NCBI RefSeq assembly: GCF_011045215.1
Contig: NZ_CP049201.1
From: Escherichia coli
GTDB taxonomy: Bacteria > Pseudomonadota > Gammaproteobacteria > Enterobacterales > Enterobacteriaceae
DNA length: 64,000 nucleotides
Direction: 5' to 3' (one strand)
In this document: positions 53,164 to 53,410 of the stretch, piece after piece
Position numbering within the stretch: position 1 is the first letter of the stretch
Layout of the letters: each line of letters starts with the position of its first letter
Notes under the pieces: model-generated
The model's database searches: none
What the model was told of the DNA's origin: nothing
What the model saw: only the letters and a program-made list of their open reading frames with translations
Made by a program: the position numbers and the translations under genes

Positions 53164-53410
53164 GTCGGCAAAATGAACATAAACGGAAAAAACGCTTCTT
53201 TTACGCCTGAAGAGTTAACCAGGAAATATCATGAGGAAGCCCCGGTTGATTTAAAAAATAACCATGGCGATAAAATAAATGAGAAAAACAACAATAAACA
53301 CATTACTTACTTTCCCGTTGATGCCATTTTAGATGGGAATAAACATCTGCCATGAGTTAAATAAAAAAGAATTAATTACACCCGATGATAGCTTAAAAAG
53401 GAGGTGAATT

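Follow-up and report, generated by a model that had tools for sequence, protein, structure and literature searches.

A 60-codon open reading frame in the chaperone-translocator interval of the Escherichia coli eip locus

The eip locus and its eicA-eipB spacer

We analysed a window of 64,000 nucleotides of E. coli DNA (contig NZ_CP049201.1), by which we mean the whole stretch at its full length. It contains the eip locus of E. coli, which adjoins selC and lies between yicS and eilA, with a gene order that is the same as in strain 042 and in other RefSeq genomes. Genes were assigned from the list of open reading frames (ORFs), from Pfam and NCBIfam matches and from the RefSeq annotation of the strain GF4-3 locus. 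The upstream genes are setC (48822-50006), yicL (50117-51040), nlpA (51044-51862, minus strand) and yicS (inside 52002-52364). These are followed by eicA (52666-53163, plus strand, with its TGA stop codon at 53161-53163), which encodes a class II (SycD/LcrH/SicA-type) type III secretion (T3S) chaperone (TIGR02552, 113 bits against a cut-off of 104.8; PF07720 TPR_3, E=2e-17), and by eipB (53411-55192, plus strand), which encodes a major translocator of the SipB/IpaB family (PF16535, 40.1 bits against a cut-off of 31). Translocators bind class II chaperones through a PxLxxP motif (P/VxLxxP), e.g. PELKAP in IpaB (PMC4536800), and EipB carries a chaperone-binding motif of this type, PMLAPP, at residues 62-67. 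Downstream lie eipC for the minor translocator (55205-56335), eipD for an IpaD/SipD-type tip protein (56379-57728; PF06511, E=4e-34) and eilA for a HilA-like regulator (from 57931).

The spacer between eicA and eipB (53164-53410) is 247 bp long, and 183 bp of it are taken up by ORF60, i.e. a 60-codon ORF on the plus strand at 53173-53355 (ATG at 53173, TGA at 53353-53355). The initial annotation had described a 60-aa ORF filling most of a 247-bp gap between a SicA-like and a SipB-like gene, and the ORF, the gap and (from the TIGR02552 and PF16535 matches) the identity of both flanks were all confirmed. The eip locus of the literature consists of six genes (eicA, eipB, eipC, eipD, eilA and eaeX/air), and its published descriptions make no mention of a small ORF between eicA and eipB (PMC11068852; PMC4210603; bioRxiv 10.1101/396804). 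ORF60 is annotated in RefSeq as the hypothetical protein WP_001024520.1, and PGAP calls it in all of the annotated carriers that we viewed.

The translation of ORF60 from its ATG, MNINGKNASFTPEELTRKYHEEAPVDLKNNHGDKINEKNNNKHITYFPVDAILDGNKHLP, is 60 aa long and of low complexity, rich in Asn and Lys. Its homologs form nine protein clusters among 5.8 billion proteins, all of them E. coli-like and with 78-96% identity, and four of the nine are truncated variants (P0006-P0009, corresponding to truncated alleles). ORF60 is an orphan found only in E. coli. No Pfam or NCBIfam family matched it at E<=0.1 and the best match among PDB sequences had only E=0.3. The AlphaFold2 model is of low confidence and mostly coil, with one short helix at residues 12-20 and a mean pLDDT of 56. 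A regular-expression scan of ORF60 for the class II chaperone-binding motif [PV]xLxxP gave no match, the nearest sequence being VDLKNN.

The junction between eicA and ORF60, GAGTGAGTCGGCAAA (53158-53172, plus strand), contains a weak Shine-Dalgarno-like sequence, GAGTGAG. The ORF60 ATG lies 9 nt past the eicA stop codon and in the same frame as eicA. The predicted duplex with the anti-Shine-Dalgarno sequence has -4.8 kcal/mol for ORF60, as compared with -8.7 for eicA and -12.9 for eipB (eipD falls within this range of -8.7 to -12.9), and 11% of random positions reach the score of ORF60. The 55 nt that follow ORF60 (53356-53410, plus strand) contain the strong eipB Shine-Dalgarno sequence, AAGGAGGT, at 53398-53405. 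Neither a terminator nor a plus-strand sigma-70-like promoter was predicted across the spacer (53164-53410), and eicA, ORF60 and eipB are therefore most simply read as one transcript. The spacer had no Rfam match at E<=1.

The eicA stop codon and three further codons (GTC GGC AAA) separate eicA from ORF60 (53161-53175), and if the stop were read through, the product would be an EicA-ORF60 fusion. The shared frame has a one-in-three chance of being a coincidence, and the ORFs at this position in E. albertii and in the L015-type loci described below are out of frame with their chaperone genes. An antisense ORF of 123 codons (53329-53700, minus strand) also overlaps ORF60 at its end and eipB at its start. 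We treated it as spurious; opposite to it is a gene under clear purifying selection.

Coding signatures and population variation of ORF60

We compared ORF60 with simulated and spurious ORFs. A complete plus-strand ORF of at least 60 codons occurred in 1.4% of first-order Markov shuffles of the spacer (p=0.014), a length that is unusual for one spacer and that is, on its own, unremarkable after picking from a 64-kb window. The base composition of ORF60 has a three-base periodicity (A 26/32/16, G 17/4/9 and T 8/13/22 at the three codon positions), with a chi-square of 21.6 and P=0.002-0.003 against simulated ORFs that were themselves free of stops. The codon-usage score was 0.062 per codon, as compared with 0.073 ± 0.070 for 60-codon chunks of real eip genes and a mean of -0.107 for spurious ORFs; this places ORF60 above 96% of the spurious ORFs of the island and above 97.5% of the stop-free simulations. 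In both periodicity and codon usage ORF60 is thus like the neighbouring genes, and it has the appearance of a sequence that was shaped by coding in its present frame. A spacer that never coded is unlikely because ORF60 carries these intrinsic signatures.

The population data gave a different picture. Our population set comprised 59 copies of the interval, i.e. 53 metagenome contigs together with RefSeq loci and related sequences; the metagenome contigs were anchored on an exact 28-mer at the start of eipB, and alleles mutated in this anchor lie outside the set. ORF60 was disrupted in 26 of the 59 copies, by a -1 frameshift in 18, a +1 frameshift in 7 and a deletion in 1. Both of the common frameshift alleles, A5 and A7, map to an A6 homopolymer at 53253-53258 (plus strand; codons 27-29, TTA AAA AAT). 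By comparison, eicA was disrupted in 5 of 50 copies and eipB (first 1200 nt) in 6 of 52, every one of these disruptions being confined to a single sequence, and several to contigs of ~1-3x coverage. The ORF60 ATG was kept in every examined sequence but the deletion allele L066. Intact ORF60 was found on all of the divergent haplotypes and is therefore ancestral, and each of the A6 indel alleles sits on its own SNP haplotype, which identifies the indels as inherited mutations and not sequencing noise or rapid switching. Phase variation at A6 was considered and rejected: the indel alleles are stably inherited on their own haplotypes and the -1 allele is present in the complete 042 genome.

The eicA-eipB interval is carried by 727 of the 5426 complete E. 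coli genomes in RefSeq (728 records), and among 60 of these records, sampled at even spacing, there were 13 copies with -1, 6 with +1 and 1 with a deletion, i.e. ~33% were disrupted. PGAP labels the -1 and +1 copies as 'frameshifted'. In strain 042, the eip type strain, the -1 allele is annotated as the pseudogene EC042_RS31660 (NC_017626.1, 4252744-4252925; L074, 27745-27926), while eicA, eipB, eipC, eipD and eilA of the same strain are annotated with no pseudogene flags. The frameshift in 042, where the eip locus was defined, probably explains the count of six genes in the literature. The reading frame of ORF60 is therefore not intact across its carriers.

One further allele, P0004, encodes 58 aa and comes from a single 1950-bp ENA contig. 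It resembles the -1 haplotype with a second deletion, of 5 nt, after which the conserved C-terminal part is again in frame (…DLKITIAINEKNNNKHIAYFPVDAILDGNKHLP). Should this single observation be real, it would be a compensatory change and a hint that the ORF60 C-terminus has some value.

The pattern of substitutions was analysed in the same way for ORF60 and its neighbours. The SNP sites in ORF60 were spread over the codon positions as 13/9/14 (p=0.56), as compared with a strong third-position excess in eicA (10/7/28, p=2e-4) and in eipB (46/33/115, p=9e-14), and a binomial test rejected for ORF60 as large a share of third positions as in these two genes (p=0.004). With only 36 SNP sites, a third-position bias as weak as that of the 81-aa gene described below (49% of its differences) is compatible with the ORF60 data (p=0.15). 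The pN/pS of ORF60 was 0.60, against 0.64 (+1) and 0.98 in the off-frame controls, 0.32 in eicA and 0.20 in eipB. When the window was compared with its most divergent allele (L005), the pN/pS of ORF60 was 0.50 against 0.11 and 0.15 in the flanking genes; here pS was similar in ORF60 (0.21) and eipB (0.23) and pN was three times higher in ORF60. ORF60 thus shows neither a third-position excess of polymorphism nor a pN/pS below that of both off-frames. No constraint on ORF60 is detectable at the protein level, and it is either not maintained as a gene or at most very weakly so.

These results bear on the suggestion of the initial annotation that the ORF could be a small lineage-specific protein or simply an untranslated spacer, and they lie between the two. 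ORF60 is indeed restricted to E. coli and has coding signatures, which speaks against a spacer that never coded, but its polymorphism lacks the constraint of a coding sequence.

The 3' part of ORF60 is less variable than the rest. The low-diversity segment (53300-53364, plus strand) comprises the last 18 codons and 9 nt past the stop: there were 4 SNP sites in the 56 nt of 53300-53355 as against 32 in the 127 nt of 53173-53299 (Fisher p=0.004). Among aligned intact alleles the C-terminal 15 residues are invariant except for one G55E variant. The segment also stays conserved in lineages in which the ORF60 frame is broken, and it is not alignable in E. albertii or in L009, the locus with a diverged spacer described below. 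The predicted fold of 53256-53364 is better than that of most shuffles (z=-2.7; 4 of 200 shuffles as good), with a stem between 53259-53271 and 53345-53359 around a hairpin at 53312-53339, and the fold of the whole spacer has z=-1.5. We rejected a structured RNA in the spacer: no Rfam family matched, and all five of the SNPs in the 5' arm of the stem break pairs, none of them being compensated. Possible reasons for the low diversity of 53300-53364 are a C-terminus with a function, a cis element that acts on eipB expression, and chance.

The spacer and its flanks also differ in their divergence. The eipB allele of the window (53411-54610), which is shared with GF4-3, is ~5% away from its counterpart in most other E. 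coli carriers; the spacer, by contrast, is only 1-3% divergent between the window and most other carriers. Between the window and GF4-3, eicA differs and the spacer is identical. This pattern suggests recombination inside the eip locus.

The chaperone-translocator interval in related loci

In the systems that we surveyed, the interval between chaperone and translocator genes ranged from an 8-nt overlap to 282 bp. The spacers of distant relatives are 32-46 bp long, and spacers of 32, 34, 46, 121, 131, 171 and 282 bp (the last in L016) in other relatives held no significant ORF. Some E. coli carry a second, diverged eip-like locus (L009/L010, 5001-10480), whose EicA is 55% identical. A large invasin/intimin-like gene lies upstream of this locus, which encodes a HilA-like regulator and a tip protein in addition to a chaperone and translocators; its spacer in L009 (255 bp, 25% GC) has no ORF above 30 codons. 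The comparison of these loci shows the long spacer to be derived and variable, and outside E. coli the ORF60 frame is not conserved.

The orthologous locus of E. albertii has an EicA that is 70% identical and a spacer of 263 bp, which contains a 70-aa ORF (ORF70; L006, 5519-5731). This ORF is identical in three E. albertii assemblies and is longer than expected by chance (p=0.005, shuffles). It has no significant codon periodicity or codon-usage signal, and a search of 1.84 billion representative proteins returned as relatives only its own cluster (97% identical). At residues 47-52 ORF70 contains PELIKP, a motif that is absent from ORF60 and that has a 3.3% probability of arising by chance given the composition. 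The initial annotation had proposed conservation of the reading frame across eip loci as the means of judging the ORF. What we found is largely a lack of such conservation: about one third of the E. coli carriers, 042 among them, have the frame in a broken state, L009 lacks it, and in E. albertii an unrelated 70-aa ORF stands in its place.

A different situation was encountered in three loci from metagenome and sequencing-run assemblies with T3S systems (T3SSs) of the SPI-1 family. In each of these a gene of 81-82 codons, whose ATG overlaps the chaperone stop codon, lies between the chaperone gene and the gene for a SipB-like translocator (L015, 4504-4749, from a human gut metagenome; L070, 4001-4246; L076, 3007-3255). 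The ORF that fills the L015 spacer is longer than expected by chance (p=0.003). Between L015 and L070 the gene has diverged by 29% at the nucleotide level with zero indels, and the differences fall 19/17/35 on the three codon positions. Its dN/dS is 0.24, as compared with 0.21 for the neighbouring SipB homolog, 0.24 for the SipC homolog and 1.14 for off-frame controls. The three members of the family share 46-63% identity and a C-terminal block, [KR]PTL[KR]K[PL]SSNVQPAAI.EQL.ALTGE. Two of the three proteins have PTLKKP in this block, which fits PxLxxP, and the third has PTLRKL; the chance of a PxLxxP given the composition is 0.9% for the 81-aa protein, in a motif comparison that was made post hoc. 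All of the other major translocators that we examined, EipB among them, have a PxLxxP-type motif at residues 52-64, and the strict motif is absent from those of the three loci that have the 81-aa gene. The protein has no Pfam or PDB match, and the gene appears to be undescribed.

Searches for a common origin of these ORFs gave negative results. A profile of the three 81-aa sequences run with hmmsearch against all spacer frames returned only E>=2, and tblastn and BLASTP returned only noise. Homology among ORF60, E. albertii ORF70 and the 81-aa family was rejected, as BLASTP, shuffle-calibrated Smith-Waterman, global alignment, tblastn of the spacers and HMM comparison all gave noise. An alignment made by eye (ILDGNKHLP against RLENKPMLAPP) had prompted the idea that the spacer ORFs arose from a duplicated 5' end of the translocator gene. 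We rejected this idea as well, since protein alignments with the translocator N-termini (p=0.09-0.78) and local alignments of DNA (p=0.14-0.99) were no better than those of shuffles.

Interpretation and comparison with known systems

We favour, with moderate confidence, the explanation that ORF60 is a dispensable, decaying small gene of coding origin and not a working part of the translocator operon. ORF60 would be embedded in the eicA-eipBCD operon and is most likely co-transcribed with its neighbours. Its translation, if any, would be by ribosomes that re-initiate at the ATG 9 nt after the eicA stop codon; we propose re-initiation because the Shine-Dalgarno sequence of ORF60 itself is weak. 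The product is predicted to be a hydrophilic peptide of 60 aa that is largely disordered. The frame has been truncated repeatedly, above all by ±1 slippage in the A6 run. We infer that ORF60 descends from a once-functional small gene of the kind that is still maintained in a related system, and that it may stand locally for an interval whose content varies, some related T3SSs having a real small gene there and others nothing. A counterpoint to decay is that two thirds of the carriers keep the ORF60 frame open.

In an alternative explanation ORF60 is a functional accessory small protein where it is kept, e.g. an EicA-binding peptide or a small substrate that is secreted and adjusts the availability of the chaperone or the export of the translocator, with the frameshifted lineages having lost an optional function. 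The coding signatures, the near-invariant C-terminal 15 residues with the low 3' diversity, and a start that adjoins the chaperone stop codon are all in keeping with such a role, as is the occurrence at the same position elsewhere of an 81-aa gene with a dN/dS of 0.24 and PTLKKP in its conserved block, and in E. albertii of ORF70 with its PELIKP. Asn, Ser, Thr and Ile are abundant in the N-terminus, MNINGKNASFTP, and none of its first 12 residues is acidic, which in composition only is like T3S signals. However, ORF60 itself lacks [PV]xLxxP and is unlike both the 81-aa family and ORF70 in sequence, its SNPs do not have a coding-type pattern, its predicted structure is disordered (pLDDT 56) and its Shine-Dalgarno sequence is weak. 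In about one third of the carriers, moreover, it is truncated before the conserved C-terminus, and these include 042, in which eip expression was studied. We consider a functional peptide unlikely. More speculative, and in our judgement very improbable, is the idea that a subset of SPI-1-family T3SSs encodes an undescribed class of fast-evolving mini-proteins in the chaperone-translocator interval, starting from the chaperone stop codon and carrying PxLxxP, which would be decoys or regulators of free class II chaperone or else secreted substrates; ORF60 would then be the E. coli member, translated in intact strains and binding EicA via its conserved C-terminal segment. Free class II chaperone is a transcriptional co-activator in Salmonella and Shigella.

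Two further explanations do not require a protein. The 247-bp spacer could be a never-translated 5' leader of eipB in the operon transcript and ORF60 a chance ORF, which would agree with an orphan that has no homologs beyond E. coli and a low-complexity, Asn- and Lys-rich composition, with the weak Shine-Dalgarno sequence, the tolerated frameshifts and the even spread of SNPs over codon positions, and with the spacers of similar length that have no long ORF in L009 (255 bp) and L016 (282 bp); the length of ORF60 (p=0.014) is also unremarkable after selection from the 64-kb window. What makes a chance origin rather improbable is that the periodicity remains significant against simulations that are likewise free of stops (P=0.002-0.003), that codon usage is in the range of real eip genes and above that of 96-97% of spurious or simulated ORFs, and that E. 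albertii (p=0.005) and L015 (p=0.003) also have an ORF that fills the spacer at this position. Alternatively the functional element of the spacer could be a cis-acting RNA or DNA signal, i.e. a regulatory 5' leader, a protein-binding site or an internal eipB promoter, to which ORF60 is incidental. A signal of this kind could explain why 53300-53364 is less polymorphic than the rest of the spacer, including 9 nt beyond the stop, why it is conserved also in frameshifted lineages, and why 53256-53364 folds better than shuffles (z=-2.7). Yet the five 5'-arm SNPs break pairs uncompensated, the whole spacer reaches only z=-1.5, there is no Rfam match, predicted plus-strand sigma-70-like promoter or terminator in it, and the segment is not alignable in E. 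albertii or L009. Such a signal would in addition leave the codon periodicity unaccounted for, and we regard it as quite improbable.

Under the favoured explanation, i.e. decay of a small gene, ORF60 carries little weight for E. coli. Treating the eip/ETT2 locus as six genes costs annotation and functional studies nothing, because ORF60 is dispensable in 042, the best-studied eip strain. It is of use as a clean small case of intrinsic coding signals (ORF length, periodicity and codon usage) that outlast selection, which according to the population data has ceased. The more interesting by-product is the variable chaperone-translocator interval itself, with a conserved 81-aa gene that has a chaperone-binding-type motif in at least one related lineage.

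The eip locus described for 042 as an ETT2-associated translocator island is the same locus as that in the window, but with ORF60 frameshifted. The closest parallel to ORF60 in another species, E. albertii ORF70, has the same flanking genes and position. It starts at the eicA stop codon (GTGA overlap) and ends 54 nt before eipB, where E. coli ORF60 ends 55 nt before it, and the two N-termini are alike (MNSINK against MNINGK); beyond the N-terminus there is no significant similarity of protein or DNA. The 81-aa gene likewise shares with ORF60 its position and strand, a similar size and a start near or at the chaperone stop codon, and both are orphans. It differs in being under purifying selection and in having a conserved C-terminal block, neither of which applies to ORF60, and the two have no sequence or profile similarity. 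On these comparisons the resemblance is positional only.

The eip junction resembles those of the SPI-1 and Mxi-Spa systems in that a class II chaperone gene is followed by the gene for a major translocator with PxLxxP near residue 60. It differs in the length of the interval: ipgC and ipaB of Shigella pWR100 are 5 bp apart and sicA and sctE of Providencia 2 bp apart, and the chaperone/translocator pair of an E. coli plasmid T3SS overlaps by 8 nt, as compared with the 247-bp, ORF-containing spacer of eip. The chaperone and translocator genes sicA and sipB of Salmonella presumably abut or overlap in the same way. The statement in the initial annotation that SPI-1 has no gene at this point therefore agrees with the junctions in Shigella, Providencia and the E. 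coli plasmid T3SS, but it does not extend to all of their relatives, as some related T3SSs have a real small gene there.
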